Shown here: positions 48,155-64,000 of the stretch, in pieces
How the letters are laid out: each line of letters begins with the position of its first letter
How positions within the stretch are numbered: the first letter of the stretch is position 1
DNA from: Alphaproteobacteria bacterium
GTDB lineage: Bacteria; Pseudomonadota; Alphaproteobacteria; UBA7887
Reading direction: 5' to 3'
DNA length: 64,000 nucleotides
Assembly: GCA_965243325.1 (NCBI GenBank)
Contig: CBDEUQ010000003.1
Coordinates: 30,508-94,507 of the forward strand
The notes under the pieces: generated by a model
What the model was told of the DNA's origin: nothing
Databases searched by the model: none
The model's input: the letters and a program-made list of their open reading frames with translations, nothing else
Program-made: the position numbers and the translations under genes

Positions 48155-48170
48155 GGGTCGGCGGTTTCGG

Positions 48171-48476
48171 GTGACGCACCCGTTTCATCCTCTTCACGGG
48201 CGCGAGTTCGAGCTGATTGAGAACTGGACGATCATGGGAGTGGCGTGGCTTCGATACCCAAGTGACGACGGGACGCTGCGCAGCATCCGACAGGCTTGGA
48301 CCAGCGTAGCGGACGAGGATCCGTTTGTGCGCGTGTCGGCGGGCCGGTCGGCGTTCCGCCTCTCGGACCTGTTTGCGCTGGCGGCATTGCTGGACAGCCT
48401 GGATGGGGACGACCGCACCGTGCGGGAGAACGATAACGGGGCGGAGACTGTCAAGGAGATTTTGCCGAATGTGTAA
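48171..48476 (+). CDS. hypothetical protein (101 aa)
   Basis: GTG start just after the stop of the preceding gene; no recognised domain. Confidence 0.35.
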   Translation: MTHPFHPLHGREFELIENWTIMGVAWLRYPSDDGTLRSIRQAWTSVADEDPFVRVSAGRSAFRLSDLFALAALLDSLDGDDRTVRENDNGAETVKEILPNV

Positions 48477-48583
48477 GAATGTTTTTGCACATAAACGGGG
48501 AATACAGGGCATCTTGACGGCCAGGAAGACGGCGTCTTCTGGCTATTATGTGAAGTATAGCATGGAGTTTCCGATCATAAAGA

Positions 48584-48620
48584 GGAAGAAAGGGGTTGAT
48601 ACGGCGTTGGGAATGTGCAT
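48584..48620 (+). promoter_or_regulatory. sigma-70-like promoter in an AT-rich patch upstream of the HTH - ORF - serine recombinase operon
   Basis: TTGATA-N17/18-ATAAAT/TAAATA inside a locally AT-rich about 180-bp segment that also holds the palindrome GAAGACggcGTCTTC (48519-48533). Confidence 0.4.
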
Positions 48621-48658
48621 AAATATACTTACATTCCTTTTCCGACGGAGCCCGCGCC

Positions 48659-49117
48659 ATGGCCAGACGCCCCGCCGACGCCAAGACCCGCGCCCTCAAG
48701 GAGCATGGCTGCCTGAACCCGAACGCGGAGGCGGTGCGCGACGAGCTGTTCGTGTCCAATGCGTTCTTCGACCCGCGCGATCTGCTCCAGGTCAAGTACG
48801 AGATGCTGCGCCGGGTGCGCGAAGACGGCGTGCCAGTGAGCCACGCCGCCGCCAGCTTCGGCGTCTCGCGGCCGACCTGGTATCAGGCGCAGCGCGCATG
48901 GGAGGCCGGCGGCCTGCCGGGCCTGCTGCCGGACCGGCCGGGACCGCGCCGGCCCCACAAGCTCAGCGACGAGGTGGTCGAGGCGCTGCGGGCGGCGAAG
49001 AGCGAACGGCCGGAGCTGACCGCCGCCGAGATGGTCGAGCTGGTGCGCGACCGCTTCGGCGTCTCGGTCCATCGCAGCAGCATCGACCGCGCCCTGGCGC
49101 GGGGAAAAAAACGATGA
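48659..49117 (+). CDS. helix-turn-helix protein with IS630/IS481-type winged-HTH N-terminal domain (no DDE domain)
   Basis: …AASFGVSRPTWYQAQRAWEAGGLPGLLPDRPGPRRPHKLSDEVVEALRAA...ELTAAEMVELVRDRFGVSVHRSSIDRAL... follows the HTH-tnp pattern; only 152 aa. Confidence 0.55.
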   Translation: MARRPADAKTRALKEHGCLNPNAEAVRDELFVSNAFFDPRDLLQVKYEMLRRVREDGVPVSHAAASFGVSRPTWYQAQRAWEAGGLPGLLPDRPGPRRPHKLSDEVVEALRAAKSERPELTAAEMVELVRDRFGVSVHRSSIDRALARGKKR

Positions 49118-49419
49118 CGATGCACAACCCACCCTGCACCGCGCTCCCGGCGGCGGAGCCTTCGGCCTACGGACAGGGGTACGAACGGATGCGCCGTCAT
49201 GCCGTCGAGCCCGGCGCCGTCCACGACCGCCACGGAAGCGGCGTGGTGGCGTTGCGCGGCGTCGCGGCCTGGCTGCATGCCTTCGCCGCGCTGCCCGCCC
49301 CGCCGGCGGCCGCGTGCGCGGGGGCCGCGCCCGGGCCGTTGCCCACCGGGGTCGAGACGTCGGCGATCGACATTCTGATCGCCATGCTCAACGGCCATAT
49401 GGAAGGAAAGCCGGCATGA
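49114..49419 (+). CDS. hypothetical protein (101 aa), translationally coupled between the HTH gene and the serine recombinase
   Basis: ATGA overlap at both ends (49114-49117 and 49416-49419). Confidence 0.45.
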   Translation: MTMHNPPCTALPAAEPSAYGQGYERMRRHAVEPGAVHDRHGSGVVALRGVAAWLHAFAALPAPPAAACAGAAPGPLPTGVETSAIDILIAMLNGHMEGKPA

Positions 49420-51437
49420 GCAGCGCCCATCAGAAGGTGGATACGGGCCATCTGAGCCGCGATGCCTACTTGTACGTGCGCCAGTCAAGCCTGCAGCAGG
49501 TGTTCGACCATGGCGAGAGCACGCGCCGCCAGTACGCGCTGCGGGAGCGCGCCGTGGCGCTGGGCTGGCCGACCGAGAACATCGTCGTGATCGACCGCGA
49601 TCTCGGCCTCTCTGGCGCCGACAGCGACCGCGAGGGGTTCCAGCACCTGGTCGCCGAGGTCGGCATGGGCCGGGCCGGCATCGTGCTCGGGCTCGAGGTC
49701 AGCCGTCTCGCGCGCAACTCCACCGACTGGCATCGGCTGATCGAGCTCTGCGCGCTGAGCGAGACACTGATCCTCGACGAGGACGGCGTCTACGATCCCG
49801 TCGACTTCAATGACCGGCTCCTGCTGGGGCTTAAAGGCACGATGAGCGAGGCAGAGCTGCACATGATGCGCGCCCGGCTGCGCGGCGGGACGCTCAACGC
49901 GGCCAAGCGCGGGGAGTTGAAGCTTCCTCTGCCGGTGGGGCTGGTCTACGACCCGCTCGACCAGGTGGTGCTCGACCCCGACGAACAAGTGCAGCACGGC
50001 CTGCGCCTGCTGTTCGACACCTTCACCCGGACCGGCTCCGCGCAGGCCACGGTGAAGCACTTCAACAGAGAGAAGCTGCTGTTCCCCCACCGTCCTCTCA
50101 GCGGACCGCAAAAGGGCGAGCTGCATTGGAAGCGGCTGAAGTTCTCGCAGGTGATCAACACGCTGCACAACCCGCGATACGCCGGTGCCTTCGCGTACGG
50201 CCGCACCCGGCGCCGCCGGCGGCCCGGCGGCGGTGTCGAGCACAGGCGCCTGGCGCGCGAGGAATGGACGGTGCTGTTGCGCGACGCGCACCCGGGCTAC
50301 ATCACCTGGGAGCGGTTCGAGGAGAACGAACTGCAACTCCGGAACAATGCGCAATCCTACGAAGCGAAGCGCCGCAGCCCCCCGCGCGAGGGACCGGCAC
50401 TGCTGCAGGGCCTGGCCATCTGCGGCGTCTGCGGCCGGAGCATGACGGTCCGCTACCGCACCCGTAAAGGACGGCAATATCCCGATTATGTGTGCCAGAG
50501 AGAAGGGATCGAGACAGCGAGCGGCAGCGTGTGTCAGGGCGTATCGGGCGGCGCCATCGATCGCGCGGTCGGCGAGCTGCTGGTGGAACTGGTGACACCG
50601 CTCACGCTGGACGTCGCGCTCCAAGTGCAGAACGAGCTCACGGCCCGCGCCGAGGAGGCCGATTTATGGCGTTCCCAACAGGTGCAGCGCGCCCGCGAGG
50701 AAGCGGACTTGGCGAGGCAACGGTTCATGCAGACCCATCCCGACAACCGGATGGTCGCCGACGTGCTGGAGGCGGAATGGAACGCGAAACTCCGGGCCCT
50801 GGACGAGGCGCAGCACGAGCTCGATCGCAGCCGCGCCGAGCCTGACCGGGGGTTGGACGATGAGCAACGAAAGCGAGTGCTTGAGCTGGCCAGAGACTTC
50901 CCCCGCCTGTGGAACGATCCGGCGACGCCGCACCGCGAGCGCAAGCGGATGGCGCGGCTGCTGATCGAGGACGTGACGCTGACCAAGGCCACGCGGAGCC
51001 TGGGAGTGCGCCTGCGCGGCGGCGCGACCAGAGAGCTCATCTGGACGCCGGATCCACGCGTGTATGAAATCCGCAGGACCAGCGATGAGATCGTTGCCGA
51101 GATCGACAGGCTGTTGGATGACCACACGGATGGCGAGATTGCGTCGATCCTCAATACGCGCGGATCCCGAACCGGGCATGGCCATGCCTTTACCCCGAAG
51201 CTGGTGACAGCAACCCGCCACAATCGGTCTCTCAGGTCACGCTACGAGCGGCTTCGCGATCGTGGGCTGTTGACGATCCATGAGGCCGCCGACCGGCTCA
51301 CCGTCTCGATCCGCACCATCAAAAAATGGCGCAGGGCCGGGCGTCTGCGCGGTTATGCCTACAACGACAGACCGGAATACCTGTTCGAGGTTCCCGATCT
51401 CCCGCCGACCAGGCAGGCAAGTCGATGCGGCCCGTGA
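49416..51437 (+). CDS. large serine recombinase (resolvase/invertase N-domain, recombinase domain, zinc ribbon, coiled coil)
   Basis: N-terminal YLYVRQSSLQQ...S...Q (catalytic Ser), ...GLKGTMSEAELHMMRARLRGG..., zinc ribbon LAICGVCGRSMTVRYR...YVCQ..., long C-terminal coiled coil; 673 aa. Confidence 0.85.
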   Translation: MSSAHQKVDTGHLSRDAYLYVRQSSLQQVFDHGESTRRQYALRERAVALGWPTENIVVIDRDLGLSGADSDREGFQHLVAEVGMGRAGIVLGLEVSRLARNSTDWHRLIELCALSETLILDEDGVYDPVDFNDRLLLGLKGTMSEAELHMMRARLRGGTLNAAKRGELKLPLPVGLVYDPLDQVVLDPDEQVQHGLRLLFDTFTRTGSAQATVKHFNREKLLFPHRPLSGPQKGELHWKRLKFSQVINTLHNPRYAGAFAYGRTRRRRRPGGGVEHRRLAREEWTVLLRDAHPGYITWERFEENELQLRNNAQSYEAKRRSPPREGPALLQGLAICGVCGRSMTVRYRTRKGRQYPDYVCQREGIETASGSVCQGVSGGAIDRAVGELLVELVTPLTLDVALQVQNELTARAEEADLWRSQQVQRAREEADLARQRFMQTHPDNRMVADVLEAEWNAKLRALDEAQHELDRSRAEPDRGLDDEQRKRVLELARDFPRLWNDPATPHRERKRMARLLIEDVTLTKATRSLGVRLRGGATRELIWTPDPRVYEIRRTSDEIVAEIDRLLDDHTDGEIASILNTRGSRTGHGHAFTPKLVTATRHNRSLRSRYERLRDRGLLTIHEAADRLTVSIRTIKKWRRAGRLRGYAYNDRPEYLFEVPDLPPTRQASRCGP

Positions 51438-51473
51438 CGAAAGCCGAAATCTGCCCCGGTGTTCGACGGAATA

Positions 51474-52355
51474 ATGGAGGTGCAGTATGCAGCATGCTTC
51501 CGGCGGGCCGCGAAACGCCTGCGCCGCGCCGAGCGCCGGGCCGCCGGCCTCTGCGAAACCTGCGCGGCGCCCGTGACCGGCAGGGCGGCCTATTGCGACT
51601 CCTGCGCCGCCGCCCGGAACGAACGGCGGCAGCGCAATCCGGAGCCGGCGCGCGAGGCCGACCGCCGACGCTATGCCGAGCGGCGCAAACGGGGCGACTG
51701 CACGAGCTGCGGCAAGCCGGTCCAGGGGACGGCCGAGTGCCGGACGTGCCGCGACGCTCACCGGGCACGCTACGACTCCCGCCGGGCCGCCGGGGTCTGC
51801 GTCAAGTGCCGGACCCCCACCGACGGCGGCGCGGCCTACTGCGATCCCTGCGCCGCCGCCAAGGCCGCGAGCCGCGACCGCGACCGCGCGGCGGAATACG
51901 CGGCCAGGCGCCGGCGGTATGCCGAACGGCGGGCGAAGGGGCGCTGCGTCGCGTGCAACGCGCCATCGCCGGACGCGGCGCGCTGCAAACCTTGTGCGGC
52001 CGTCAACGCCGGGCAGCGTGATCGTGAGGCGGAGAAAGCCGCCCGGCGCCGGCGGTATGCCGAGCGGCGGGCGAAGGGACGCTGTGTCGAGTGCGACGCG
52101 CCGTCGCCCGGGGCGGCGCGGTGCGAGCCCTGTTCCCTCCGGCACCGCGAGCGCTCGGGAGCGTTCCGCGGCATCCCGCTATGGGACCCGAGCTGGACGG
52201 TGATCGAGATCGCCACCGGGGTCTGTCACGGCACCTATGACAGCGAGATGGAGGTCGCGGCCTGTCTCGCCTTCGCCAGGCTCTCGCGCGACGAGGTCGA
52301 GGTGATCGCCGACGCCAGCCCGATGGCGGGTTTCATTGCGCCCGGTTGGCAGTGA
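51474..52355 (+). CDS. Arg-rich protein with 5 tandem Cys4 zinc-ribbon modules plus a conserved C-terminal domain (family member 2)
   Basis: Repeats RRRYAERRAKGRCVACNAPSP.AARCKPC... (the last two nearly identical at DNA level), then C-terminal ...FRGIPLWDPSWTVIEIATGVCHGTYDSEMEVAACLAFARLSRDEVEVIADASPMA... Confidence 0.6.
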   Translation: MEVQYAACFRRAAKRLRRAERRAAGLCETCAAPVTGRAAYCDSCAAARNERRQRNPEPAREADRRRYAERRKRGDCTSCGKPVQGTAECRTCRDAHRARYDSRRAAGVCVKCRTPTDGGAAYCDPCAAAKAASRDRDRAAEYAARRRRYAERRAKGRCVACNAPSPDAARCKPCAAVNAGQRDREAEKAARRRRYAERRAKGRCVECDAPSPGAARCEPCSLRHRERSGAFRGIPLWDPSWTVIEIATGVCHGTYDSEMEVAACLAFARLSRDEVEVIADASPMAGFIAPGWQ

Positions 52356-52425
52356 TGAGCGGGGAGATCCCTGCTGCGTCGCCGGCCCGCCGCCCGCAAT
52401 TCAGCACGACAGGAAGGACACCGCG

Positions 52426-53574
52426 ATGACCGCGAAGGACATCGACACGCTGCGCGCCGAATATCGCGAACGCTACCACCGCCGCACCGCCGAGCGCCGT
52501 TCGAAGGGCCTCTGCGTGCATTGCGGCGAGCGTCCGCCCAAACCCGGCCGCAGCCGGTGCGAGCCGTGCGCGGCCAAGAAGCGGCCGGCCCACCGCGCCC
52601 GCTACCATCGCCGCACCGCCGAGCGCGTCGCGCGGGGGCTCTGCCCGAAATGCGGCAAGCGCCCGCCCGCGCCGGAGCGCAGCCAGTGCGCGCCCTGCCT
52701 GGAGAAGGACGCCGCCGCCGGCCGGGCCCGGGACGCGAGGCTCAGGGCCGCCGGCATCCCGCGCCGCGATCCGGCCAAGGCCGCCGAGTACGAGCGCGGG
52801 CGCAACCGCCGCCGGGCCGAGTACCGCCGCGCCAGGGGGCTGTGCGCCGCCTGCGGCAAGTCCCCGCCGGCGCCTGGCCGCGTGTCCTGCGAGCCGTGCC
52901 TGGAGACGCGCCGCGCGCAGGACCGCGCGAAATACGCGGCCGGCAAGGCGGCGGGCAAGCTCTACGGCGGGGCCGATCCCGAGGCTTGCCGCAAGGCCGC
53001 CCGCGCCCGCAGCCGGCGGCGGAGGAAAGCCTGGATCGAGGCCGGGCTCTGCGTCCGCTGCGGCGCGACACCGGAGGTCGAGGGCAGCACGAACTGCGAG
53101 GCCTGCAAGCAGAAAAGCCGGGCCAGGGGCCGCCGCAAATACGCCGAACGGCGCGCCGCCGGGCTCTGCACCAAGTGCGGAAGCCCCGCTTTCGACGGCC
53201 TGGCCTATTGCGGCGCCTGCGCCGCCATCCGCGAGGTCCAGCGGCCGCCGGAGGTCAAGAACGCCCAGTCCCGGCGGCGATACGCCGAACGGCGCGCCCG
53301 CGACCGGTGCACCGACTGCGGCGCGCCGTCCCAGGGCGCCTCGCGCTGCGTGCCGTGCGCGGAACGCTCGCACCACCGCTCGACATACTTCAAGGGCATC
53401 CCGATCTGGGACCCGAGCTGGACCGTGATCGAGATCGCCACCGGCGAGGCGCTCGGCACCTTCGACAGCGAGGCCGACGTGGCGCTCTGCCTCGCCTTCG
53501 AGAAGCTGGCGCGCGACCAGGTCGAGGTAATCGCCGACATCAGCCCGATGGCGATGCACACGAGCTGGACCTGA
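52426..53574 (+). CDS. Arg-rich protein with 7 tandem Cys4 zinc-ribbon modules plus the same C-terminal domain (family member 3)
   Basis: RBS AGGAAGGA; repeats ...RRTAERxxxGLCxxCGxRPPxPxRSxCxPC...; C-terminal ...FKGIPIWDPSWTVIEIATGEALGTFDSEADVALCLAFEKLARDQVEVIADISPMA... shared with member 2. Confidence 0.65.
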   Translation: MTAKDIDTLRAEYRERYHRRTAERRSKGLCVHCGERPPKPGRSRCEPCAAKKRPAHRARYHRRTAERVARGLCPKCGKRPPAPERSQCAPCLEKDAAAGRARDARLRAAGIPRRDPAKAAEYERGRNRRRAEYRRARGLCAACGKSPPAPGRVSCEPCLETRRAQDRAKYAAGKAAGKLYGGADPEACRKAARARSRRRRKAWIEAGLCVRCGATPEVEGSTNCEACKQKSRARGRRKYAERRAAGLCTKCGSPAFDGLAYCGACAAIREVQRPPEVKNAQSRRRYAERRARDRCTDCGAPSQGASRCVPCAERSHHRSTYFKGIPIWDPSWTVIEIATGEALGTFDSEADVALCLAFEKLARDQVEVIADISPMAMHTSWT

Positions 53575-53739
53575 CCGGATCGCCGGCCCCGGCCGCCTAG
53601 CCGGGGAACGGGCGCGGCGGGGTCTCCCCGCTGCGCTGCCGGCCCGCCGTCCGCCGGTAATCGACGCGCCGGCCTTCTCGACATGCGTATAGCCGGCCGG
53701 GCGCCCGCCGGCCCGACCCCAACCGAAGGAGCTTTCACT

Positions 53740-54006
53740 ATGACCGCCTGCATCCCCGACGATCCCGCCTATTGCTTCTGTCCGATTGCGGAAGAGGACG
53801 GCGAACCGCCGCAGATTCGCATTTTGGTGGAAGGTCTCATCTTCGCCATCCCCACCGCGCTGGTCGCCCTCGACCGCGAGCAGGGGCTCGACGTGTGCGA
53901 CCGGTTGAACCGGGCGCTCGGTCTCGATCGCGCCTCCTGGACCGCGCTGGCCGCGCGCTGCCTGCGCGCCGGCGCCGGCGGCATGAACGGCAGCACCGTG
54001 CACTGA
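53740..54006 (+). CDS. hypothetical protein (88 aa)
   Basis: RBS GAAGGAG upstream of the ATG; no recognised domain. Confidence 0.35.
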   Translation: MTACIPDDPAYCFCPIAEEDGEPPQIRILVEGLIFAIPTALVALDREQGLDVCDRLNRALGLDRASWTALAARCLRAGAGGMNGSTVH

Positions 54007-54211
54007 AACCGCCCGGAATCGCCGCCGCGCTTTCCGGCTCGCCAACCGCCGCGCCAGTTACCGCGGGCGCGGGGCGTGACGGCGCCGGCGTCGGCACGGG
54101 GTTCGCCCGGGAGTTGGAGGGGAGCTTTCGCGGGGGCGTGTCCGGCAGGGCGGCGGGAGGGAGTCCGGTCGCCTCGATGCCTGGCGCGGCAACGCGAAGG
54201 AGGTTTTCGCC

Positions 54212-54457
54212 ATGTTCCTGTCCGACCATTCCCCCGACCTTCCCGCCGGCAGCCTGCTGCTGGCCGAGCTGGGGATCGACCCGGCCGCCGTCCGCGAGGC
54301 GATCGAGGACGAGCGCGCGATGCGGTGCCCCGAGCGACCGGCGATCTATCCCGAGCACGGTTTCGCCGGCCTCTTCCCGGAACCGGCGGTGGGCGGTTTC
54401 GGCGAGGCGGTGCCGGACGAGCCCTGGGACCCGGCGTCGTCGCTCCCTCCGGCGTGA
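54212..54457 (+). CDS. hypothetical protein (81 aa)
   Basis: Strong RBS GAAGGAGG; acidic small protein. Confidence 0.4.
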   Translation: MFLSDHSPDLPAGSLLLAELGIDPAAVREAIEDERAMRCPERPAIYPEHGFAGLFPEPAVGGFGEAVPDEPWDPASSLPPA

Positions 54458-54573
54458 TGGAGGTGGAGGAGGGCTTGGAGAAGGTGAGCGGCGGGGGGCC
54501 GGGGGGAGAGATCGTCCCGGCTTCCCGTCGTTCGCAAACCATCGTCAGAATCCTGAGCCACAAGGAGATAGCA

Positions 54574-55041
54574 ATGGCTTTCGGAAAGAACTACGCGGAA
54601 ATCGTCGGACACCTCGGCGGCGATGTCGTCATCAACCATCTCGCCTCGGGCGGGCGCGTCGCGAACTTGAGCGTGGCGACCGACGAGTCCTATTTCGACC
54701 GCGCCGGCCAGAAGGTCGACCAGACCGAGTGGCATCGCGTCGTCACCTTCCAGGACGGGCTGATCGACATGCTGGAGCGGCACGCCAGGAAGGGCCGGCT
54801 TATCAGCGTCGAGGGCAAGCTGCGGACGCGGCGCTGGAAGAAGGACGGCGACGACTCCTGGCGCTACTCGACCGAGATCCTCGTCGTGCCGGGCGATCGG
54901 GTCCAGTTCTACGACAAGCCGAACCGCGCCAACGGCAACGGCGCCCAGGCCGAGCCCGCTCCGGCGAACGGCGAGGCGATGCCGGCCGGCGGTGACCCTG
55001 CACAGGCCGACGACCTCGGATCGGATCGTATCCCCTTCTGA
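54574..55041 (+). CDS. ssb: single-stranded DNA-binding protein
   Basis: OB-fold N-domain (…WHRVVTFQDGLIDMLERHARKGRLISVEGKLRTRRWKKDG...), Gly/Pro/Ala-rich linker and acidic tail ending DDLGSDRIPF. Confidence 0.8.
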   Translation: MAFGKNYAEIVGHLGGDVVINHLASGGRVANLSVATDESYFDRAGQKVDQTEWHRVVTFQDGLIDMLERHARKGRLISVEGKLRTRRWKKDGDDSWRYSTEILVVPGDRVQFYDKPNRANGNGAQAEPAPANGEAMPAGGDPAQADDLGSDRIPF

Positions 55042-55074
55042 GCCGGTTCCCCTCCCTCCCAACTCGGGCGGCCG

Positions 55075-55100
55075 TTTCGGCGGTCGTCCTTTTTTTCTGC
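55075..55100 (+). terminator. weak terminator-like hairpin plus T7 run after ssb
   Basis: GCCGtttCGGC followed by CCTTTTTTTC. Confidence 0.3.
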
Positions 55101-55184
55101 CGTGGGTCCGGTGTCCGCCGCCGCGCCGGGAGTGGAGAAAAGCGGAGGGTCGGGCAAGCCGACTGAAGAGAGAGGGAGGAGGCC

Positions 55185-55622
55185 ATGGCCATCCGCTACG
55201 TCATCCGCACCGTCGACGAGGACTGGATCGATCTTGTCGACGAACCCGTCCGCATCGACGACCGCCGCGCCGCCTGGGCCGAGGTCCGGCGCCGCATCGC
55301 CGCCGATCCCGATCTGAAGACCGTCGTCATCAATCGCGACAACGGCGCGATCCTCTGGCAGAGCGATCCCGACGTTCCGCCGCGCTACCGCGTCGCCACC
55401 GCCGACCGGACGTACGTCTACGCCATCGACGATGTCGACTTCCCCATTGAGGTCCTCTCCGAGCACAAGGAGAAGGACGACGCCTGGACCGCCTTCTACG
55501 ACGCGGTTGCGGCCTCCGGCGACGAGCTGGTGTTCATCTTCGACATCTCCGGGCCGCAGCGCCGCATCGTCGCCAACTCCGACGATTTCGATCATCTCAA
55601 GCCCGTCCGGGACGTGGCGTGA
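55185..55622 (+). CDS. hypothetical protein (145 aa)
   Basis: Strong RBS GAGGGAGGAGG; no recognised domain. Confidence 0.45.
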   Translation: MAIRYVIRTVDEDWIDLVDEPVRIDDRRAAWAEVRRRIAADPDLKTVVINRDNGAILWQSDPDVPPRYRVATADRTYVYAIDDVDFPIEVLSEHKEKDDAWTAFYDAVAASGDELVFIFDISGPQRRIVANSDDFDHLKPVRDVA

Positions 55623-55942
55623 TGCCGGGCCGGTCGCGTAGGCGGACGGGAGGGTTGGGCGACCCCCTTCGGGGCCGGGCTCTCCGCTCATATCGTCACT
55701 CGCTGGCGCTCGCGCCGAAACCGCTGCGATCCCTGTCGCCTCCGCCCGCTGGCGCGGGCTGCGCGCTCCGCTTGCCAATGCGCCCGGCAGGTCCGGGGAT
55801 CGTTTCCAGGGCCGTGCAGGCCGAGAGGCCGATGGGGTCCGTGCAGGTGGAGAGGGAGGGGCTGGCCGCTGTGCTGTCTCATTGTCCCACACGTGCTCGG
55901 GCCAGCAACCCCTGCGGGGTCCTCCGCTCCGCTCCGGCCTGG

Positions 55943-56055
55943 CCCAAGAAGCTCTAGGGCGGACCGTGAAAGTTGCCGACCGTGAAGATCGCTGGCGCGA
56001 TCTTCCGCACCACTCGCCGACTTTCCGCACCACTCCGCCCAAGAGCTTCTAAGGC
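55943..56055. repeat. repeat-rich intergenic segment (candidate cis-acting site such as oriT, iteron or recombination site)
   Basis: Bounded by CCCAAGAAGCTCTAGGGC (55943-55960) and CCCAAGAGCTTCTAAGGC (56038-56055). Inside are GACCGTGAA x2, the palindrome GATCGCtggcGCGATC and TTCCGCACCACTC x2. Confidence 0.6.
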
Positions 56056-56138
56056 CAGGTGCTCGCCCTGTGCGCGCGTGAGCCAAAGAGACATCACATC
56101 GGCGCACAACGCTCCGGTGCATCCAACAGGAGACCGTC

Positions 56139-57068
56139 ATGAACATCATCGAGAACATCGACACCATCGAAGCCGGCGGGCAGTCCGCCACCGCGACCGC
56201 CTGCGAGCACGCTGCCCTCTTCGGCGCGACCCCCGAGCGGGACGAGTTCGACACCCGGGACGTCTGGGACGCCGACGAAGCGATCTGCGCCATGCAGGAA
56301 GCCTTCGGGCTCCTCGCCGACGCCGTCGCACCGGACGGGTTCCAGCTCGCCGACGAACGCGAGAGCCTGCTGTGGGGCTTCGTCAACATGCTCGACGCCC
56401 AGACCAACCGCCTCGACCGCGCCGCCGACAAGCTGATGCCCGAGCTGCGCGATCTCCAGCGCGAGCAGGACGGCACCGAGATCAAGTCGTTCGAGCTGGA
56501 ACTGAAGACCGACCGCGCGCAGAACCTCACCGCGCGCCGCGATGCCTTCGAGACCCTGCGCGACGCAGCCGCCGAGAGCTACCGCGACGCCACCGGCACC
56601 ACCTGGCGGCCCCGGCGCGGATCGCACGTCTCGCAGACCGGCACGCTCACCTCCGCCGCCATCGACGCCCGCGACTTCGCCCGCGCGAGGCAGGACCGCA
56701 AGACCGCCGCGCACCTGCCGCAGGGCACCCTGGTCGCCATCGCGGGCGGCAAGGACGTGACCGACCCCGGCGCGGTGATCGACATGCTCGACAGGACCCG
56801 CGCCAAGCACGCCGACATGGTGCTCGTCCACGGCGGCGGCCCCGGCGTCGAGAAGATCGCCGCGCGCTGGGCCGAGCGCAACGGCGTCCACCAGGTCGTC
56901 TGCAAGCCGGACTGGGACCGCCACGGACGCGCCGCCCCGTTCCGCCGCAACGAGGAACTGCTCAACCTCCTGCCGAAGGGCGTCATCGCGTTCCCCGGCA
57001 GCGGCATCACCGAGAACCTCGTGGACCGCGCGCGGCAGCTCGGCATCCCAGTCTGCCGCGCGAGCTGA
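56139..57068 (+). CDS. DUF2493 (SLOG / DprA-LOG-like Rossmann) domain protein with an uncharacterised N-terminal region
   Basis: C-terminal ...LVAIAGGKDVTDPGAVIDMLDRTRAKHADMVLVHGGGPGVEKIAARWAERNGVHQVVCKPDWDRHGRAAPFRRNEELLN...VIAFPGSGITENLVDRARQLGIPV matches DUF2493. Confidence 0.55.
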   Translation: MNIIENIDTIEAGGQSATATACEHAALFGATPERDEFDTRDVWDADEAICAMQEAFGLLADAVAPDGFQLADERESLLWGFVNMLDAQTNRLDRAADKLMPELRDLQREQDGTEIKSFELELKTDRAQNLTARRDAFETLRDAAAESYRDATGTTWRPRRGSHVSQTGTLTSAAIDARDFARARQDRKTAAHLPQGTLVAIAGGKDVTDPGAVIDMLDRTRAKHADMVLVHGGGPGVEKIAARWAERNGVHQVVCKPDWDRHGRAAPFRRNEELLNLLPKGVIAFPGSGITENLVDRARQLGIPVCRAS

Positions 57069-57857
57069 CCGCAGCGTCTCGCGGGCCGCGTCGTCATCCC
57101 CGGCAACGGACGATGGCGGCGCGGCCCGTTTTCGCGTGCGCACATCGGGGCTGCGGCCACGCTCCCCCTCGCGCGCGCTTTGCGCGACGCTCGTGCTCCG
57201 GCTCGCCGCGCTCGCCGATCGCCGGTGCGTTCGCTGCCGCTCGCACCGATGCGCTCGCGCTGCGCCTCCCGCCGTCGGCTCCGCCGACCCGCCGGTCGGC
57301 AATCGCGTCGTCCGCCTTCGCACCACGCTTCGCATGAGTGCTTCGGCTACTGCGCCGATCATCGTGCACGACACGATGCACGGCGTCGGCGCTGGTGACC
57401 ATGATTGCGATCATCGCGCGCGTCGCCATTGCCGGCTTCGCCGTCATCAGCCTCCGCAGTCGCGGGCGTGCTCGTGCAGCGCCCGCCGCCGATGCCGCCG
57501 TCACCGCGCTCGACACTTCGTCCCTCCGTCGTGTCGCCGACGATGCCCACTCAAGCGCCGTGGCGGCTCCGATCCGCCGCTCTCGCCGGCTCCGATTCCC
57601 CATCGAAAATACTGCCCCGTTCGGCTCTGTCTCTACGGCGGAGCCGGCGATTTCTCACACCTGCCGCAGACTTCTGCATTGAGCGAGCCCTGACCGGCCT
57701 TCCCGATAGAACGATTTCCGTCGTTGTTTCAGACCGTTAGGCGCAATCCCGCCTGACCCGCGATCCCGCGCGCGGTCCCCGTCTCCTTCCTCAAAACGCC
57801 GTCCTTGTTCCCTGCGAACGGGGCTGCATCCGAGGGAACAGACCGGGAGACCGCGCC

Positions 57858-59009: not shown

Positions 59010-60183
59010 GACCGGGAAGACACGGCTCAAGGTCGCGGCCATCGCCGCCGCGAGGCCGAAGGCGCGCGAATACACGCTCTGGGACGGAACGCTCAGGAGC
59101 TTCGGGCTGCGGGTCCAACCCTCCGGCGCGAAGTCGTTCATCGTCCAGACCCGCGCGCGGGGCCGGATGCGCAAGATCACGCTCGGGCGATTCCCGGACA
59201 TGAGCCTCGCCGACGCGCGCACGGAGGCCGCCGCTGTCCTCGCCCGTATCTGGGCGGGCGAGGACTTGGCCCCGCCGCGCAAGGTCAAGGCCCCCGTGTT
59301 CCGCGACTTCGCCGCGCGCTACCGGGAGCGGCGCAAGGACGTGTGGAAGCCGTCCTCGCTGGAGACCTTCGACATCTACATGCGAGGTCGGCTCCTGCCC
59401 GCCTTCGGACGGTTCAAACTCGACACCATCGACCATGCGCGGGTCTCGGCGTGGTTCGATGCGGCGAGCGAGGAGCGCCCCGGCGCGGCCAACCGGGCGT
59501 TCGACATCCTGCGCGCCATGCTCAAGACCGCGCGGCAGTGGGGCGAACTCGGCGAGCATGTCCCCGACGCCTGCGCCAATATCACGGTGAACCCGAAGAA
59601 GCCCGTCGCCCGCTATCTCGACAAGGACGAGATCGCCCGACTCGGCGCGGCGCTGGACCGGCACGCCGGGGACCGCCCCTGGCACGTGGCGGCGCTGCGC
59701 TTGCTGGCGCTGACCGGGGCGCGGCTCTCCGAAGCGGTCAACCTGCGGTGGGACGAGATCGCCGCCCTGTCCGAAGACGGCGCGAGCGCGCGCATCGAGG
59801 ACTCCAAGACCGGCCCGCGCACGATCTGGCTCGGGCCGGAAGCGGCGAAGCTGGTGGCGGCGCTGCCGCGCACGGGAGGGGCGGAGCGCGTGTTTCCCGA
59901 AAACCTTACCACGTCGAGGCTCTACGACTTCTGGTGCCGTGTCCGGGAGGAGGCGGGGCTGTCCGGTCTCCGCATCCATGACTGCCGCCACACATGGGCC
60001 TCGCAGGGCATCATGAACGGCGTGGGTCTCCCCACCGTCGGGCGGTTGCTCGGACACAGGCGGCTGGCCACCACCGCGATCTACGCCCATCTCGACGACA
60101 ACGCCTTGCAGGCTGCCGCCGAGAAGGCGGCGAGCCGAATCGCGAAGGCAATGGGGTTCGAAGCCGAGCCGTCACCGCTATAA
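58999..60183 (+). CDS. P4-type tyrosine integrase, second of the second tandem pair (overlaps the previous gene by 11 nt)
   Basis: …LKVAAIAAARPKAREYTLWDGTLRSFGLRVQPSGAKSFIVQ... arm domain; HDCRHTWASQG...TAIYAHL catalytic motif. Confidence 0.85.
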   Translation: MANRTGKTRLKVAAIAAARPKAREYTLWDGTLRSFGLRVQPSGAKSFIVQTRARGRMRKITLGRFPDMSLADARTEAAAVLARIWAGEDLAPPRKVKAPVFRDFAARYRERRKDVWKPSSLETFDIYMRGRLLPAFGRFKLDTIDHARVSAWFDAASEERPGAANRAFDILRAMLKTARQWGELGEHVPDACANITVNPKKPVARYLDKDEIARLGAALDRHAGDRPWHVAALRLLALTGARLSEAVNLRWDEIAALSEDGASARIEDSKTGPRTIWLGPEAAKLVAALPRTGGAERVFPENLTTSRLYDFWCRVREEAGLSGLRIHDCRHTWASQGIMNGVGLPTVGRLLGHRRLATTAIYAHLDDNALQAAAEKAASRIAKAMGFEAEPSPL

Positions 60184-60209
60184 CGGAGATACGCGAGACG
60201 GGCATCACT

Positions 60210-60554
60210 TCAGGCCCATCCGCCATCGTTCAGGCCCCAGCGCTTGATCCAGTCCCAAGCTTTCCGTTCGCCCAATAGCGCCTCCAGCGCCGCCATTTCG
60301 GCGCTGCAACCCAGCGAGCGGCTGTTTTCCTCGTTGTGGCCCTCGCCAGCGGCGCGGGTGCGCTCGGCCTTGCCGACAGCACGCGCATGGTCCTGCGCCC
60401 TCTTGAGCACGTCCATTGCGCCTGCCATGACAGCGTGGCGGATTTCTCCGGCTTGCGAGCGGGCAGGCGGTTTCTCCCGGTCAAGAAGCGCCTCGATGCG
60501 GGTGATCTCCCGCGCCAGGCCGCAGGTGCGGTCGTCGAGCGTCGGTTTCGGCAT
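60210..60554 (-). CDS. hypothetical protein (114 aa)
   Basis: Strong RBS GGAGGGGG upstream of the ATG; promoter region contains two palindromes. Confidence 0.45.
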   Translation of the reverse strand: MPKPTLDDRTCGLAREITRIEALLDREKPPARSQAGEIRHAVMAGAMDVLKRAQDHARAVGKAERTRAAGEGHNEENSRSLGCSAEMAALEALLGERKAWDWIKRWGLNDGGWA

Positions 60555-60569
60555 TATGCGCCCCCTCCA

Positions 60570-60616
60570 TTGGAGCATTTACTCCAAATAGAGTAATCTC
60601 AAATCCAATGCATTGG
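60570..60616. promoter_or_regulatory. pair of palindromic operator-like sites
   Basis: TTGGAGcatttaCTCCAA (60570-60587) and the perfect palindrome CCAATGCATTGG (60605-60616), directly upstream of the minus-strand gene 60210..60554. Confidence 0.4.
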
Positions 60617-60941
60617 CAAGCCGTTCAGCGAATTCGGCGCGGTTCATGGTACCCACGGGGGAAGAGACAAGAACTGGGTCGATTTTCGCCGTCTTCGCGG
60701 GCCGGTTCTGCGCTTCGCGCCTCCGGCATATGGACTTCCGAGCCGCTGTGCGCTAGTCGTCGCTTTACCACTGTCTTTCGGGTTCCCCGCTCTGTCGGGT
60801 CGCCCGCTGAATACAACAGCCTGACCCGGCAAGGGGTAGCTCCCCGCGCTTGGCGAATAGGCGGGAATCGTCTTTCCGAAAGATGGTGGTAACGGCCCGG
60901 CTCCCAGCCGTATCGGGAGCGATGATTGCGAGGGAAACACC

Positions 60942-62336
60942 ATGCGCATCGATTTTGTCCTTGCCTCTGCCGTGTTCATGGTTACCGCCTGCGGAGGTGG
61001 CGGAAGCGGAGGCAAGCTCGCCCAGATGACGCAACAGCCGGACGAGACTCCGGCTATGGTCGCTCCCACCAAAATCGCATTTGCTCCTTCCTCCAGCGGA
61101 CACTACAGGACGGACGGTCTGCCTGGACCGGCAATTTCCGACGCGAAATACATGCCAATCTATCGGGATGATGACCGTATTCTTGTCGGGGTCGAACAAA
61201 CTGCCAATTTTTTACGCAGCCTTCCAGTTATCGCCAAGACCGCGAGTGGCGCAGATATTCGATATGGAATTGTTGATGATGGCGCGGGCGGAAATATCGT
61301 CCGAGAATATCTCAATCAAGTAACCGATGTTCTATTTTCGCATATCGTTGGATTTGAATGGGACGGAAGACCGCAAGTAACTTATGGAGGACATGCATCT
61401 CCTGACGATGTGGAGCGTCTAATCCGTTCCATCCAGCTTGTGAACGTCGCTCTACCGGAATCGCGGAAAATGGAACTCCCTTCCGCGTCTCCCTATCCTT
61501 TGCCGCAAGGTCCCAACTCCGGCATTCATGTCTTTTTTCTCGATCCCGAAAATGATCCTGATTATTGGGGAATAACTTTCAACACGAGAAATGGAGATAC
61601 GCTAAAATCCAACATTTCCATCAGCGCGCATTACACCGATGCTGGTGATCGGCGAGCAACTATTCTACTGGCTCATGAGATTCTACATGCGTTGGGTCTT
61701 GGCGATCATGTTGCGGAATCCCACGATAGCATTTTGGAAGCGGGCAGGGGAATTTATGAGAGGCAACAGAACTCGCCGCAGCCATTGTCCTTGCTCTATA
61801 ACGAAGACCGCGAAGCGCTCCGGGGATTATACGATCCGTCACGATTGGGATCTTGGGCGAATACAGGTTTGCATATCGCCGGACACGGACAGCACACGGC
61901 CTTCGGCGTTGCGCTGCGCAACGGTTATGCCGAGCCATGGGCTTACGGCTATACGCCGAACAGCGACCTTGCCGATAATCGTAGCCTGTCCGGTTCGGTG
62001 AAATGGAGCGGCGAATTGCTCGGGTTGACCCCGGACGCGGCGGCTGTCGCGGGCGATGCTGCGATCAACGTCAATCTGCCATCCATGACGGGCCGGGCGG
62101 ACTTCACCAATCTTGAGACATGGGGCGGGAACACCGCGCCCGGCGCTGCCGGGAGCGGCGCGACATGGCTCGATGGCGATCTCGGCTATGGCATCGCCGT
62201 TCGCGGTAACACCTTCCGGGAGACCGGCGGCGATGACGGGCGCTTGACGGGCATATTCACCGGGCGCTCGCATGAAGGCGCGGCGGGTACGCTTGATCGC
62301 ACCGACCTTACGGCGTCGTTCGGAGCGTCGCGGTAG
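60942..62336 (+). CDS. lipoprotein with a zincin (HExxH) metalloprotease-like motif; lower GC than the backbone
   Basis: Lipobox MRIDFVLASAVFMVTAC; HEILHALGLGDH motif; Gly-rich beta-type C-terminal region ending ...TASFGASR. Confidence 0.5.
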   Translation: MRIDFVLASAVFMVTACGGGGSGGKLAQMTQQPDETPAMVAPTKIAFAPSSSGHYRTDGLPGPAISDAKYMPIYRDDDRILVGVEQTANFLRSLPVIAKTASGADIRYGIVDDGAGGNIVREYLNQVTDVLFSHIVGFEWDGRPQVTYGGHASPDDVERLIRSIQLVNVALPESRKMELPSASPYPLPQGPNSGIHVFFLDPENDPDYWGITFNTRNGDTLKSNISISAHYTDAGDRRATILLAHEILHALGLGDHVAESHDSILEAGRGIYERQQNSPQPLSLLYNEDREALRGLYDPSRLGSWANTGLHIAGHGQHTAFGVALRNGYAEPWAYGYTPNSDLADNRSLSGSVKWSGELLGLTPDAAAVAGDAAINVNLPSMTGRADFTNLETWGGNTAPGAAGSGATWLDGDLGYGIAVRGNTFRETGGDDGRLTGIFTGRSHEGAAGTLDRTDLTASFGASR

Positions 62337-62544
62337 CACATGATTTGTTTTGCCAGTCGTCCTGGCGCGTCGCAAGGGCGGCGGATGGCGTGGGCGCAGA
62401 AAGCCGCATTCGCCGCTCCCTGCTGAGCGCAACATGTAGACCGAAATCGAACGACACCGCTAAACGCCCTTCGCACGGGCTGGTCACGATCTACAAATCC
62501 TCTCGGCAACGGCCCGTGTTGCGCTGGACAGGTGCCATTAACAC

Positions 62545-63429
62545 CTACTCAATTGGAACAACGTTGAAATTTCCATCAAATCCCAGTTTTACCGCTGGCT
62601 CCTTCATGATCTTCAGGAAATTCTCCATTTCGTCACATTCGGCCAAGAGGTCATCTAGAATTTTCATGTAGTACTTCGACTTCTGACTCGCCACTTCGTC
62701 AGAAGCTGGTGCCTGAGAATTGATCTTTTCCTTGTACGAATTTATCCACGTGCGAACTATATCCAGATTACGCTTACACTTCTCGGGTTCAGAGATGTTT
62801 GCCCCGGCAACATTCGTCAATTGCTGAAAAGGAAACAGTACAGTTACTTCGCAGGTGGAATCTACCCTGGCCATTCTATCAAACATCTCTCCGACACATG
62901 AATCTGTTTCTTCTCGTATGTATCGCACAACCTTCGGATCGACTTCAACAAACGGCGTGGCTCCATCGTTCTCAGACATGCGGAACGCTCGAACTGACTT
63001 TTCTCCCGTTAGCGCATTCTGATAACCAGCGCCTATAAACTGTTCATCGCTGTGAAAAATGCTACCTCTTGTAATATAGCCTCGAACCATGACGCCGAAT
63101 TCCAATAAACCGATAATGGACTGCGATATGTGTTCAATCAGATTGATTATCCCCGCTGGGGAAATCTCCGTAGAGATGATGGCGCAGTCTGATATCTGTG
63201 TGACCCTGTAGTCCAAGTCGCGGCTTTCGTGCCGACTCTCGGGACAAATGATTGGTCCATAAGCAGCAATAGATTGAACATGTGACTTGGATTCCAGCTC
63301 TGCACAGATTGCAAGCAGATCGGTCAGGCGGTCGCCACTACCACCTTCGGCGGCTTCTACCTTGGATTTGAATCCAAGTATGTCCACAAAGGCCACGAAT
63401 TTATCGCGAAATTGCGGTTCGAACGTCAC
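62545..63429 (-). CDS. class III nucleotidyl cyclase-like (adenylate/guanylate cyclase fold) protein, low GC
   Basis: FVAFVDILGFKSKV (cf. hhFxDIVGFT), QISDCAIIST (cf. IGDxhhh), MVRGYITRGSIFH...FIGAGYQNALTGEKS (cf. RIGIHTGPV...GDTVNLASRLE). GC falls to roughly 45% by eye. Confidence 0.45.
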   Translation of the reverse strand: MTFEPQFRDKFVAFVDILGFKSKVEAAEGGSGDRLTDLLAICAELESKSHVQSIAAYGPIICPESRHESRDLDYRVTQISDCAIISTEISPAGIINLIEHISQSIIGLLEFGVMVRGYITRGSIFHSDEQFIGAGYQNALTGEKSVRAFRMSENDGATPFVEVDPKVVRYIREETDSCVGEMFDRMARVDSTCEVTVLFPFQQLTNVAGANISEPEKCKRNLDIVRTWINSYKEKINSQAPASDEVASQKSKYYMKILDDLLAECDEMENFLKIMKEPAVKLGFDGNFNVVPIE

Positions 63430-63442
63430 GGCGTTATTGTTC

Positions 63443-64000
63443 CTATCGTTTCAGTGGTACGGCGCTCTCGCTCATGGCCAGCAGCGTAGCGAGAGCTTCA
63501 TCCTCGGAAATCCCCGCTTCCCATCCATAGGCCGCAGCAACGGCGCCGTCCAGCGTAGCGTGCGCATCCGAGAGCCATTGCGGGCGGGTATTGTAGAGGT
63601 TCGTGAGCGTCCGGGCCTTGAGTTCCTTCGCCGCCGCCTCATCGCGCGCGACCGGGCGCTTCGGATAGCCTGGCGCCGGCTCGTCCACCCACTCGACCCA
63701 CTCCGGCGGGTTGAGCCAGCGGTCGCGGAGTTCCACCAGTCGCCGAGCGGCATCGGCTATGGCGACGGCGCGCGGCTCATCCGCGTAGTCGGCGGCGGGG
63801 ATGTTCGGCGAGAGACCGTCCGGGAAGGGGAAGGTCTCGAAGGTGGTGGTCGGCGTGTAGCGCGGCCGATCCTCAAGGCTGGTGCCGAGCCGAAGCGACC
63901 ATGCCTCGTGGAACCGGCTGTGCAGGATGCCGAAGGTCACATCGTCGTCGCGGGCGATGACGATCACTTGGCTGTCGGGCAGGACGCCCGCGTCGAGCCA
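63443..64000 (-). CDS. C-terminal part of a large SAM-dependent DNA methyltransferase (type IIG / PglX-like family); N-terminus beyond the window
   Basis: …ILHSRFHEAWSLRLGTSLEDRPRYTPTTTFETFPFP..., ...TLTNLYNTRPQWL...LDGAVAAAYGW... are blocks I associate with the C-terminal region of MmeI/PglX-type methyltransferases. The ORF is open to the window edge. Confidence 0.45.
   Translation of the reverse strand, partial: WLDAGVLPDSQVIVIARDDDVTFGILHSRFHEAWSLRLGTSLEDRPRYTPTTTFETFPFPDGLSPNIPAADYADEPRAVAIADAARRLVELRDRWLNPPEWVEWVDEPAPGYPKRPVARDEAAAKELKARTLTNLYNTRPQWLSDAHATLDGAVAAAYGWEAGISEDEALATLLAMSESAVPLKR

Follow-up and report, generated by a model that had tools for sequence, protein, structure and literature searches.

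A long hairpin on the template strand upstream of a DUF2493 gene in an alphaproteobacterial ICE: a candidate single-stranded-DNA promoter or priming signal

Introduction

The Frpo and ssi hairpins of IncF and IncI plasmids are read by host RNA polymerase while single-stranded and are inactive as duplex DNA, and non-homologous classes of such single-strand promoters have been documented (PMC9849209, PMC11541004, PMC12672017). According to a preprint, a hairpin of this kind is also a roadblock to complementary-strand synthesis. Single-stranded-DNA (ssDNA) promoters have been proposed to act as a switch, by which protective genes are expressed before the element becomes double-stranded. To our knowledge, they have been shown experimentally only in enterobacterial IncF and IncI plasmids, other candidates resting on a fold and a consensus. 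Our literature search returned no paper linking single-strand promoters to Alphaproteobacteria or to ICEs, nor any linking DUF2493 to conjugation. The ssoA origins of rolling-circle plasmids are likewise long, orientation-specific hairpins that are active only when single-stranded and are recognised by host RNA polymerase, with short invariant motifs inside a variable stem.

Here we analyse a hairpin that precedes a DUF2493 gene in a 64,000-nt stretch of alphaproteobacterial DNA (contig CBDEUQ010000003.1), which we call the window. Compared with Frpo1 and Frpo2 of F, ssi1–3 of ColIb-P9 and classes 1–3 of pESBL (IncF, IncI1), it is similarly a long imperfect hairpin (240–315 nt across these systems), more stable when formed by the template strand, the one that is transferred (here, by prediction); it precedes a leading-region gene by some tens of nucleotides, has ssb and an oriT (here a predicted one) in its vicinity, and in some elements occurs in several copies in one orientation. 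It differs from them in its weak −35/−10 hexamers, in having no A+T-rich UP element and no sequence similarity to them, in its G+C-rich Alphaproteobacteria hosts and ICE carrier, in an invariant GTGGTG module, and in its association with DUF2493, where theirs is with ssb, psiB or ardA. With the ssoA origins it has in common the long single-stranded form and the short invariant motifs, but those belong to another type of replicon, and the hairpin described here has no RS_B or CS-6 motif and is placed as a gene promoter would be.

Results

The repeats at 55943–56055 are the tip of one hairpin

A preliminary description of the window had picked out a 113-bp segment bracketed by two near-identical words and dense in direct and inverted repeats. 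All of these repeats are present where it placed them, and they occur nowhere else in the window (Table 1). It had read them as protein-binding cis sites (a candidate oriT, iteron or recombination site), which our analysis does not support: the repeats are the two arms of a single structure, and the segment is the upper part of one hairpin of ~240 nt centred near 55995. Four nested inverted repeats share this centre and jointly form one imperfect hairpin. The bracketing 18-bp words are better taken as an inverted than as a direct repeat, since as inverted arms they extend to 26 nt (55938–55963 with 56034–56059) at 88% complementarity, against 79% identity as direct copies. The two copies of GACCGTGAA lie 7 nt apart rather than the 8 nt first given, while the 7 nt between the copies of TTCCGCACCACTC stands, and the palindrome GATCGC tggc GCGATC extends to a perfect 9-bp GAAGATCGC/GCGATCTTC at 55984–56005. 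That such repeats would not arise by chance is borne out by the 13-mer TTCCGCACCACTC, which is present twice in the window against 0.08 expected (0 of 100 shuffles reached two); for the 9-mer GACCGTGAA, both occurrences in the 64-kb window are here, with 0.43 expected.

The segment is non-coding, as described, but it belongs to a larger gap of 516 nt (55623–56138), and the 'hypothetical gene' said to flank it is probably not a real gene. This ORF (55619–55957) has no Pfam match and fails a GC3-based coding filter, and homologous sequences differ within it by indels whose lengths are not divisible by three. Pfam confirmed both the ssb gene and the serine recombinase noted in the neighbourhood.

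DNA folding of 55860–56110 gave −70.2 kcal/mol for the plus strand (z −6.8) and −83.5 kcal/mol for the minus strand (z −8.3), and the RNA fold of the hairpin region has a z-score of −8.6; G+C is ~0.69–0.70. No inverted repeat in 14.7 kb of the element is stronger than the hairpin. Elsewhere in the gene block, the intergenic gaps, including that upstream of ssb, gave no fold better than shuffles, so that in this element such a hairpin precedes DUF2493 only. Nothing like it was found in Rfam or in the searchable literature: the whole window gave 0 Rfam matches at gathering score, and the region itself, searched at E up to 10, gave only chance-level matches, the best (E 0.99) being to a generic miRNA-hairpin model. 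A tRNA scan found no tRNA, and blastn of the intergenic region against plasmids returned a single 54-nt match, which comes from the left module and lies outside the hairpin.

Table 1. Features of the hairpin, its flanks and the predicted nick region (coordinates in the window; the slash in the nick-region sequence marks the predicted nick)
Feature	Position	Strand	Remarks
Gene on the left flank of the gap	55185–55622		145 aa
Whole imperfect hairpin, ~240 nt	55865–56103	minus strand folds	DNA/RNA folding, 28-sequence alignment
Outer arms	55865–55901 with 56067–56103		
−10-like GACAAT (CACAAT in most relatives)	55881–55886	−	putative; second base A and last base T unpaired in consensus fold
−35-like TTGCTG, minus-strand 3′ arm	55903–55908	−	putative, weak
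Side branch on left arm: small hairpin CCCCTGCGGGG and variable insert	55909–55937	−	helices 8–10
Bracket stem, left arm	55938–55963		inverted repeat I2, 26 nt, 88%; compensatory changes at several pairs (helix 4)
Distal, loop-proximal part of hairpin (segment first described)	55943–56055	−	
Near-repeat word CCCAAGAAGCTCTAGGGC	55943–55960		
9-mer GACCGTGAA	55962–55970 and 55978–55986		
Outer module, 3′-arm half	55962–55970		tandem duplicate of inner
Inner nested inverted repeat	55968–55979 with 56014–56025		
Inner module, 3′-arm half on minus, TTCACGGTC	55978–55986		
Terminal stem-loop GAAGATCGC tggc GCGATCTTC	55984–55992 with 55997–56005		I16, 9 bp, 100% complementary
13-mer TTCCGCACCACTC	56003–56015 and 56023–56035		
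Inner module, 5′-arm half on minus, GAGTGGTGCGGAA	56003–56015		GTGGTG exposed in asymmetric internal loop
Outer module, 5′-arm half	56023–56035		
Bracket stem, right arm	56034–56059		pairs with 55938–55963
Near-repeat word CCCAAGAGCTTCTAAGGC	56038–56055		
Predicted DUF2493 mRNA start, if a single-strand promoter	56093–56098	+	predicted from hairpin register; ~45 nt before ATG
Shine–Dalgarno AGGAGA (56128–56133) and ATG of DUF2493	56128–56141	+	~35 nt past hairpin base
DUF2493 / YAcAr SLOG-domain gene	56139–57068	+	Pfam PF10686, E 6.5e-24
Truncated remnant of the predicted nick region, GGTGT/GAGAAATC	57649–57661	−	predicted nick 57656/57657
Predicted nick-region oligonucleotide sequence, GCACCATCGGTGCGTGGGGTGTGAGAAATC			

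The fold is conserved and covaries

Conservation across the element family, the check proposed in the preliminary description, is what we find: the segment is retained, and it is a real, non-chance cis element of a conjugative element. A scan with the DUF2493 protein, taking one genome per species, yielded 434 relatives, from which the best 80 loci were fetched. These best 80 of 434 were all from alphaproteobacterial metagenome-assembled genomes (Thalassobaculaceae, Defluviicoccus, Rhodospirillales, Paracoccaceae), and within one such genome the element loci are often multi-copy. The intergenic region could be aligned in most of the fetched loci. Among 67 unique sequences, 45 have a central hairpin part of the window's type; in the remainder this part differs in sequence, yet a long hairpin is still formed and the module described below is kept.

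The consensus fold of a 28-sequence minus-strand alignment contains 78 pairs, 16 of them with compensatory changes. Paired bases fill 98.7% of cells, compared with 38–41% when the partners are slid by 1–3 columns, and 0 of 500 shuffles reached the observed covariation values. Variation is unevenly spread along the structure: the pairs of the terminal stem-loop are invariant in the alignment while its loop is variable, and the side branch differs among loci in both loop and stem length.

The hairpin is selected on the minus strand

Of the 67 unique loci, 66 fold more stably as the minus strand, and the mean difference is 9.7 kcal/mol. The consensus fold has −97.8 kcal/mol on the minus strand against −66.3 kcal/mol and 65 pairs on the plus. 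The pattern of substitution points the same way. Sporadic departures from Watson–Crick pairing by one transition leave 36 G·T wobbles on the minus strand and a single one on the plus, the sequences counted being mutually related; an even split would be expected otherwise, so this bias indicates strand-specific selection. Conserved G·U columns number two on the plus strand and three on the minus. Because stability, consensus fold and wobbles all favour the minus strand, we conclude that the hairpin is selected as single-stranded minus strand, which is the template strand of the flanking genes.

The same calculation on the F plasmid (NC_002483) gave a hairpin of ~315 nt for Frpo2, upstream of ssb, with its base ~46 nt from the ssb start; its template strand folds at −89.1 kcal/mol (z −5.9) and the other strand at −83.3 kcal/mol (z −3.7). 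Local alignment of our hairpin with Frpo2 of F and with the ygeA upstream region gave scores no better than shuffles.

An internal-loop module is the most conserved feature

In the stem, GACCGTGAA on the left arm and TTCCGCACCACTC on the right arm oppose each other; they are the two halves of one internal-loop module, duplicated in tandem. The duplication is carried by the window, since the relatives L058, L073 and L076 have a single module. On the minus strand the module reads 5′-GA GTGGTG CGG...C(A)CG G TC-3′, with GTGGTG exposed, and it is the most conserved feature of the hairpin family. All hairpin types share three invariant parts on this strand: a stem, then the unpaired GTGGTG, then CGG, whose pairing partner C(A)CG lies beyond a variable inner hairpin.

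In 70 of 73 loci, drawn from the best 80 of the 434 DUF2493 relatives, CCGCACCA is found at most 260 nt upstream of DUF2493 (median 122 nt), with two copies in 46. Outside the DUF2493 leader, the fetched loci carry 68 further occurrences on the gene strand and 16 on the other, and for the extra gene-strand copies it is the complementary strand that folds better in 48 of 57. A Sphingobium plasmid has the module upstream of DUF2493 and again upstream of ssb; this plasmid is typed MOBP, not MOBF, which argues against a site specific to one relaxase. Judged by eye, the module is a poor fit to a Chi-like site, a sigma-54 promoter or a CRP site, and we rejected these.

Weak promoter-like hexamers are oriented towards DUF2493

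The hairpin and the DUF2493 start are 35–45 nt apart in all loci. On its 3′ arm, the minus-strand fold carries TTGCTG, 16 nt and GACAAT in the direction from loop to base, at only 7 of 12 positions in agreement with the promoter consensus. The pattern TTGnnG, 16 nt, nAnAAT recurs in 43 of the 67 unique loci, and several of the others were clipped at extraction or have a recombined left arm. With the hexamers in this orientation, transcripts would run out of the base of the hairpin and on towards DUF2493. Neither the window hairpin nor any of three related hairpins gave a site in a sigma-70 consensus scan of both strands. Loci of Paracoccaceae carry two near-identical hairpins, each ~55 nt upstream of one of two consecutive genes, and one arm bears both CTTGAC and CATGAT. 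A PDB sequence search and NCBIfam gave no match for DUF2493 or its neighbours.

The element is an ICE whose predicted transferred strand is the folded strand

An exact look-up of the DUF2493 protein led to a second contig, L083, which is 99.7–99.9% identical to window positions 53597–57661 (99.7% over 55262–57661) and encodes an identical DUF2493 protein. Its plus strand carries two tyrosine integrases, DUF3800, Cys-rich genes, ssb, a hypothetical gene and DUF2493, followed by a 940-nt non-coding gap; beyond the gap, on the minus strand, are a PIN toxin and antitoxin, a 1042-aa TrwC-family relaxase, a TrwB coupling protein and TraG_N. This gene order identifies element A as an ICE, its relaxase being of the TrwC family. 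A sliding window of raw folding energy along L083 was uninformative at its 70–80% G+C, because Cys-rich coding regions score as low as the hairpin.

On its minus strand, the gap of L083 contains GCACC-ATC-GGTGC GTGGGGTGT/GAGAAATC, the slash marking the predicted nick. In the transferred strand of F, GCAAAAACTTGTTTTTGC GTGGGGTGT/GGTGC, nicking occurs after GTGGGGTGT (oligonucleotide table, PMC3074121). The two nick regions are identical over 12 of 12 nt (TGCGTGGGGTGT), and in both a small hairpin abuts. The likeness to F extends to the strand relative to the leading genes and to a relaxase of the TrwC/TraI family; what resembles the F oriT, however, is a separate site ~1.6 kb to the right of the hairpin and not the hairpin itself, and the window copy retains only the 3′ side and 5 nt. 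The nick motif is present in 24 loci with enough flank, 27 times on this strand and 0 times on the other, and lies 350–690 nt past DUF2493 in most and ~1.1 kb past it in Paracoccaceae. The arms of the small nick hairpin covary among loci (GCATC/GATGC, GCAGC/GCTGC, GCACC/GGTGC, GCACT/AGTGC).

This F-type nick signature predicts transfer of the minus strand, with DUF2493 as the first gene to enter. The predicted nick lies ~590 nt downstream of DUF2493 and ~1.55–1.6 kb from the hairpin, and DUF2493 is the only gene between them. Identity of the window to the intact ICE ends at 57661; as the nick hairpin is lost from the window copy, the element in the window may be a relic.

The relaxase operon enters last in F, R388 and RP4. 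In L083 this operon converges on DUF2493, unlike the same-direction downstream layout of F and R388. Two cultured Roseobacter plasmids agree with the predicted polarity: in these, DUF2493 is upstream of, and co-oriented with, an HTH–relaxase–T4CP operon. If the relaxase operon enters last in these plasmids too, DUF2493 is on the leading side and points at oriT.

Similar structures precede DUF2493 in cultured plasmids

A tblastn search places DUF2493 homologues in 665 plasmid records, the majority of them conjugative plasmids from Rhizobium, Sinorhizobium, Agrobacterium, the Roseobacter group and sphingomonads. We examined five cultured alphaproteobacterial plasmids, and all five have long stem-loop structures immediately upstream of DUF2493, with the template strand the more stable in 5 of 5, although by only 0.3 kcal/mol in Rhizobium leguminosarum. 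Three of the five folds are clearly better than shuffles, namely those from Pseudosulfitobacter (L085), Agrobacterium (pAt, L086) and Phaeobacter (L089). The Pseudosulfitobacter hairpin is 285 nt long, with z −11 on the minus strand and −9.3 on the plus; that of Phaeobacter has −86.2 kcal/mol (z −5.5) against −71.1 (z −1.7). The Sphingobium fold (L088) beats shuffles weakly (z about −3), and that of R. leguminosarum (L087) is not better than shuffles (z −0.4).

Discussion

Most likely, the hairpin is a new, non-homologous member of the single-stranded-DNA promoter/initiation class. More specifically, we hold with about even confidence that it is an Frpo-like ssDNA promoter, a priming signal, or both; function as a primer site, or a mixed function, accounts for this anatomy just as naturally. 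The hairpin would form on the minus strand while that strand is single-stranded. Entering the recipient 5′ end first from the nick (57656/57657 in the intact element), the strand would bring in the DUF2493 gene next, with the hairpin ~1.55 kb behind the nick. There the hairpin would mimic duplex DNA, so that host RNA polymerase could start on it, the 3′ arm of the minus-strand hairpin acting as the non-template strand. Transcription back towards the nick would then yield DUF2493 mRNA before a complementary strand exists, as with Frpo and ssi in plasmids of the IncF and IncI groups. This RNA could also serve as the primer for the complementary strand, and the stable stem could delay conversion to duplex. 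In this scheme we infer polymerase recruitment, the start of transcription, the actual nicking and any role for the module from the anatomy of the locus. Several observations weigh against it. Its weakest point is the promoter-like hexamers; in addition, similarity to Frpo2 and to the ygeA upstream region is absent, DUF2493 alone has such a hairpin in this element, the relaxase operon of L083 converges on DUF2493, the plus strand has two conserved G·U columns of its own, and the window copy, lacking the nick hairpin, may be a relic.

We are doubtful that the exposed module is itself a dedicated ssDNA landing site, for the DUF2493 SLOG (DprA-like) protein, a conjugative primase or a piloting relaxase. 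Were it so, the hairpin would nucleate an undescribed establishment complex common to alphaproteobacterial ICEs and plasmids.

The structural, strand and nick evidence would also serve for a site of single-strand initiation only (ssi- or sso-like), which recruits primase or RNA polymerase without giving rise to any DUF2493 mRNA. For a primer site the weakness of the −35/−10 hexamers would matter less; the GTGGTG exposed beside a stem resembles a recognition element, a toprim-domain gene lies directly upstream of the hairpin in two plasmids, and Frpo itself has been described as a primer site (PMC12672017). However, a fixed distance of 35–45 nt to the DUF2493 start is needed by a promoter and not by a primer site, and a primer made here would copy just the 1.5 kb from hairpin to nick. 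We regard initiation without transcription of DUF2493 as unlikely.

Rather less probable is that the sequence acts as RNA, either as a minus-strand antisense or as a plus-strand 5′ leader controlling DUF2493, in the manner of FinP/traJ or of the conAn antiterminator. The RNA fold has a z-score of −8.6, covariation does not separate RNA from DNA, and there is a precedent in pLS20, in which an RNA leader reportedly regulates plasmid establishment genes. A plus-strand leader is nevertheless disfavoured by the wobble asymmetry. As for an antisense RNA, visual inspection showed no conserved minus-strand promoter on the right side of the hairpin, where a consensus scan also found none, and such an RNA would miss the ribosome-binding site, because the conserved part ends ~35 nt before it. 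There is also no terminator-like site to the left of the hairpin, by eye, and no Rfam match.

The two tandem direct repeats on each side of the palindrome might suggest a cluster of double-stranded operators bound by HTH proteins or by the DUF2493 protein, and as duplex the minus-strand promoter-like motif would fire leftwards. The left and right words differ, so that one duplex-binding protein cannot read both; moreover, compensatory changes up to 240 nt apart and a 36:1 wobble bias are unexpected for duplex sites, and the other hairpin types swap sequence but retain the fold. On these grounds we think operators very unlikely.

An oriT, a secondary nick site or a relaxase-binding site is more improbable still. 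The element does have a TrwC relaxase, the plus strand shows a terminal inverted repeat followed by CGCACCAC, a geometry like that of MOBF oriTs, and the module GAGTGGTGCGG and the nick region GCGTGGGGTGT, aligned by eye, agree at 7 of 11 positions. Yet a far better nick candidate, with its 12 nt identical to F and its abutting hairpin, lies 1.6 kb away, and the module is also found in the MOBP-typed Sphingobium plasmid and, as two copies, upstream of consecutive genes in Paracoccaceae.

We give the least credence to an attC-like hairpin recombination site or a mobile palindromic repeat. Like an integron attC, the hairpin folds as a single strand with one strand used, has extrahelical bases and stands between co-oriented cassettes; the gene cassettes on either side vary among loci, and tyrosine and serine recombinases are nearby. 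An attC is much shorter, however, 240 nt exceeding any attC, and here there are no RYYYAAC or GTTRRRY core sites (by eye) and no integron integrase. The breakpoints are not site-specific but scattered (window positions 55789, 55866, 55888, 55918 and 56052), and the motifs are not dispersed as those of a mobile repeat would be, occurring only here in 64 kb.

Two further candidates were rejected. A res or att site of the serine recombinase does not fit, as L083 keeps the hairpin without a recombinase gene and the junctions are not at a fixed site. Replication iterons are at least three identical direct repeats of 17–22 bp beside a rep gene and an A+T-rich or DnaA-box region; here each word has two copies, the words differ between the arms, and there is no rep gene among the Pfam-scanned neighbours.

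What the hairpin contributes is an unrelated family, from G+C-rich Alphaproteobacteria, with comparative support for folding on the predicted transferred strand, in the form of compensatory changes, strand-specific wobbles and a predicted nick site that fixes the polarity. It thus offers a test case for the generality of the ssDNA-promoter mechanism. In the loci that have a predicted nick, moreover, DUF2493 emerges as the candidate for earliest expression on entry; this may hold more broadly, homologues being present in 665 plasmid records.

Truncation of the ICE close to the predicted nick

Comparing the nick region of the window with that of L083, a contig carrying an intact copy of the same ICE, we find that identity between the two copies ends 5 nt past the predicted nick, and that in the window two tyrosine integrases come after this breakpoint. 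That the breakpoint lies so near the predicted nick suggests that it arose either through relaxase action or by termination at a pseudo-nick. Since the match to the intact copy stops at this point, we infer from the sequence that the window's copy of the ICE would lack a functional oriT.

Over window 60000–64000, G+C falls from ∼0.70 to 0.53–0.63 past the two integrases.

Coordinates of features in the window and in L083; a slash marks the predicted nick
Feature	Sequence or size	Position	Strand
Nick region, window copy	GATTTCTC/ACACC, then TGCCGCAG	window 57649–57661	
Nick region, intact copy	GATTTCTC/ACACCCCACGCACCGATGGTGC	L083 11511–11545	
Cys-rich protein	298 aa	window 51459–52355	
Cys-rich protein, paralogue of the preceding	412 aa	window 52336–53574	
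MmeI-type restriction-modification protein	fragment	window 63443–63967	minus

Non-coding DNA around the predicted nick

Along the predicted transferred strand, the predicted nick is followed directly on its 3' side by an inverted repeat of 12 bp, TCGCCGGCTCCG / CGGAGCCGGCGA, whose arms match perfectly and enclose a loop of 44 nt (window 57583–57650). The non-coding DNA at 57069–57661 is kept over its whole length in many loci, and a third copy of CGCACCAC is present at window 57319–57326. In L083, GAGCATAC/GTATGCTC occurs at least eight times, facing both ways, in the lower-G+C region between the predicted nick and a PIN toxin gene (11620–11830). This array is absent from the window; a relaxosome accessory protein or a partition protein could bind to it.

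The gap upstream of DUF2493

The left part of the intergenic gap upstream of DUF2493 is a separable module (window 55655–55777), found at other positions in related loci, for which the predicted fold is no better than that of shuffled sequences. Within it, 54 nt (window 55723–55776) are 85% identical to plasmid DNA of Ralstonia insidiosa (one plasmid) and Xanthomonas albilineans (two plasmids), and these matches fall in unannotated intergenic DNA; the X. albilineans locus examined, on plasmII, has ssb and DUF932 genes within ∼3 kb as well. Further right, the hairpin of one relative (L004) is interrupted by an A+T-richer insert of ∼1.95 kb (L004 3960–5912), the insertion point corresponding to window ∼56052, the right edge of the repeat-dense segment.

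Proteins of the leading block

In loci with a predicted nick, DUF2493 is the first gene behind it. The SLOG domain of its product (gene at window 56139–57068) is limited to residues 199–262, and the N-terminal 190 residues matched nothing in Pfam, in NCBIfam or among PDB sequences. The SLOG superfamily includes DprA.

The leading block also contains the genes of two paralogous proteins that consist of repeated, Arg- and Ala-rich CxxC units, share a C-terminal FKGIPIWDPSWTVIEIATG domain and matched no family. Similar repeats are found again at window 47.6–48.1 kb.

Copies of the element

Some assembled genomes carry many copies of the element. Of the best 80 loci, drawn from 434 relatives of the DUF2493 protein, at least seven are carried by CBDDOM010000002.1, a single 5.3-Mb contig, and several more of these 80 lie on contigs of isolate fc402c75. 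Compared with L083, the window has, at 48118–51500, additional genes for an HTH protein and for a large serine recombinase of 707 aa; L083 instead carries a DDE transposase insertion that separates the Cys-rich genes from ssb. The window and L083 thus carry one element in two differently rearranged copies.
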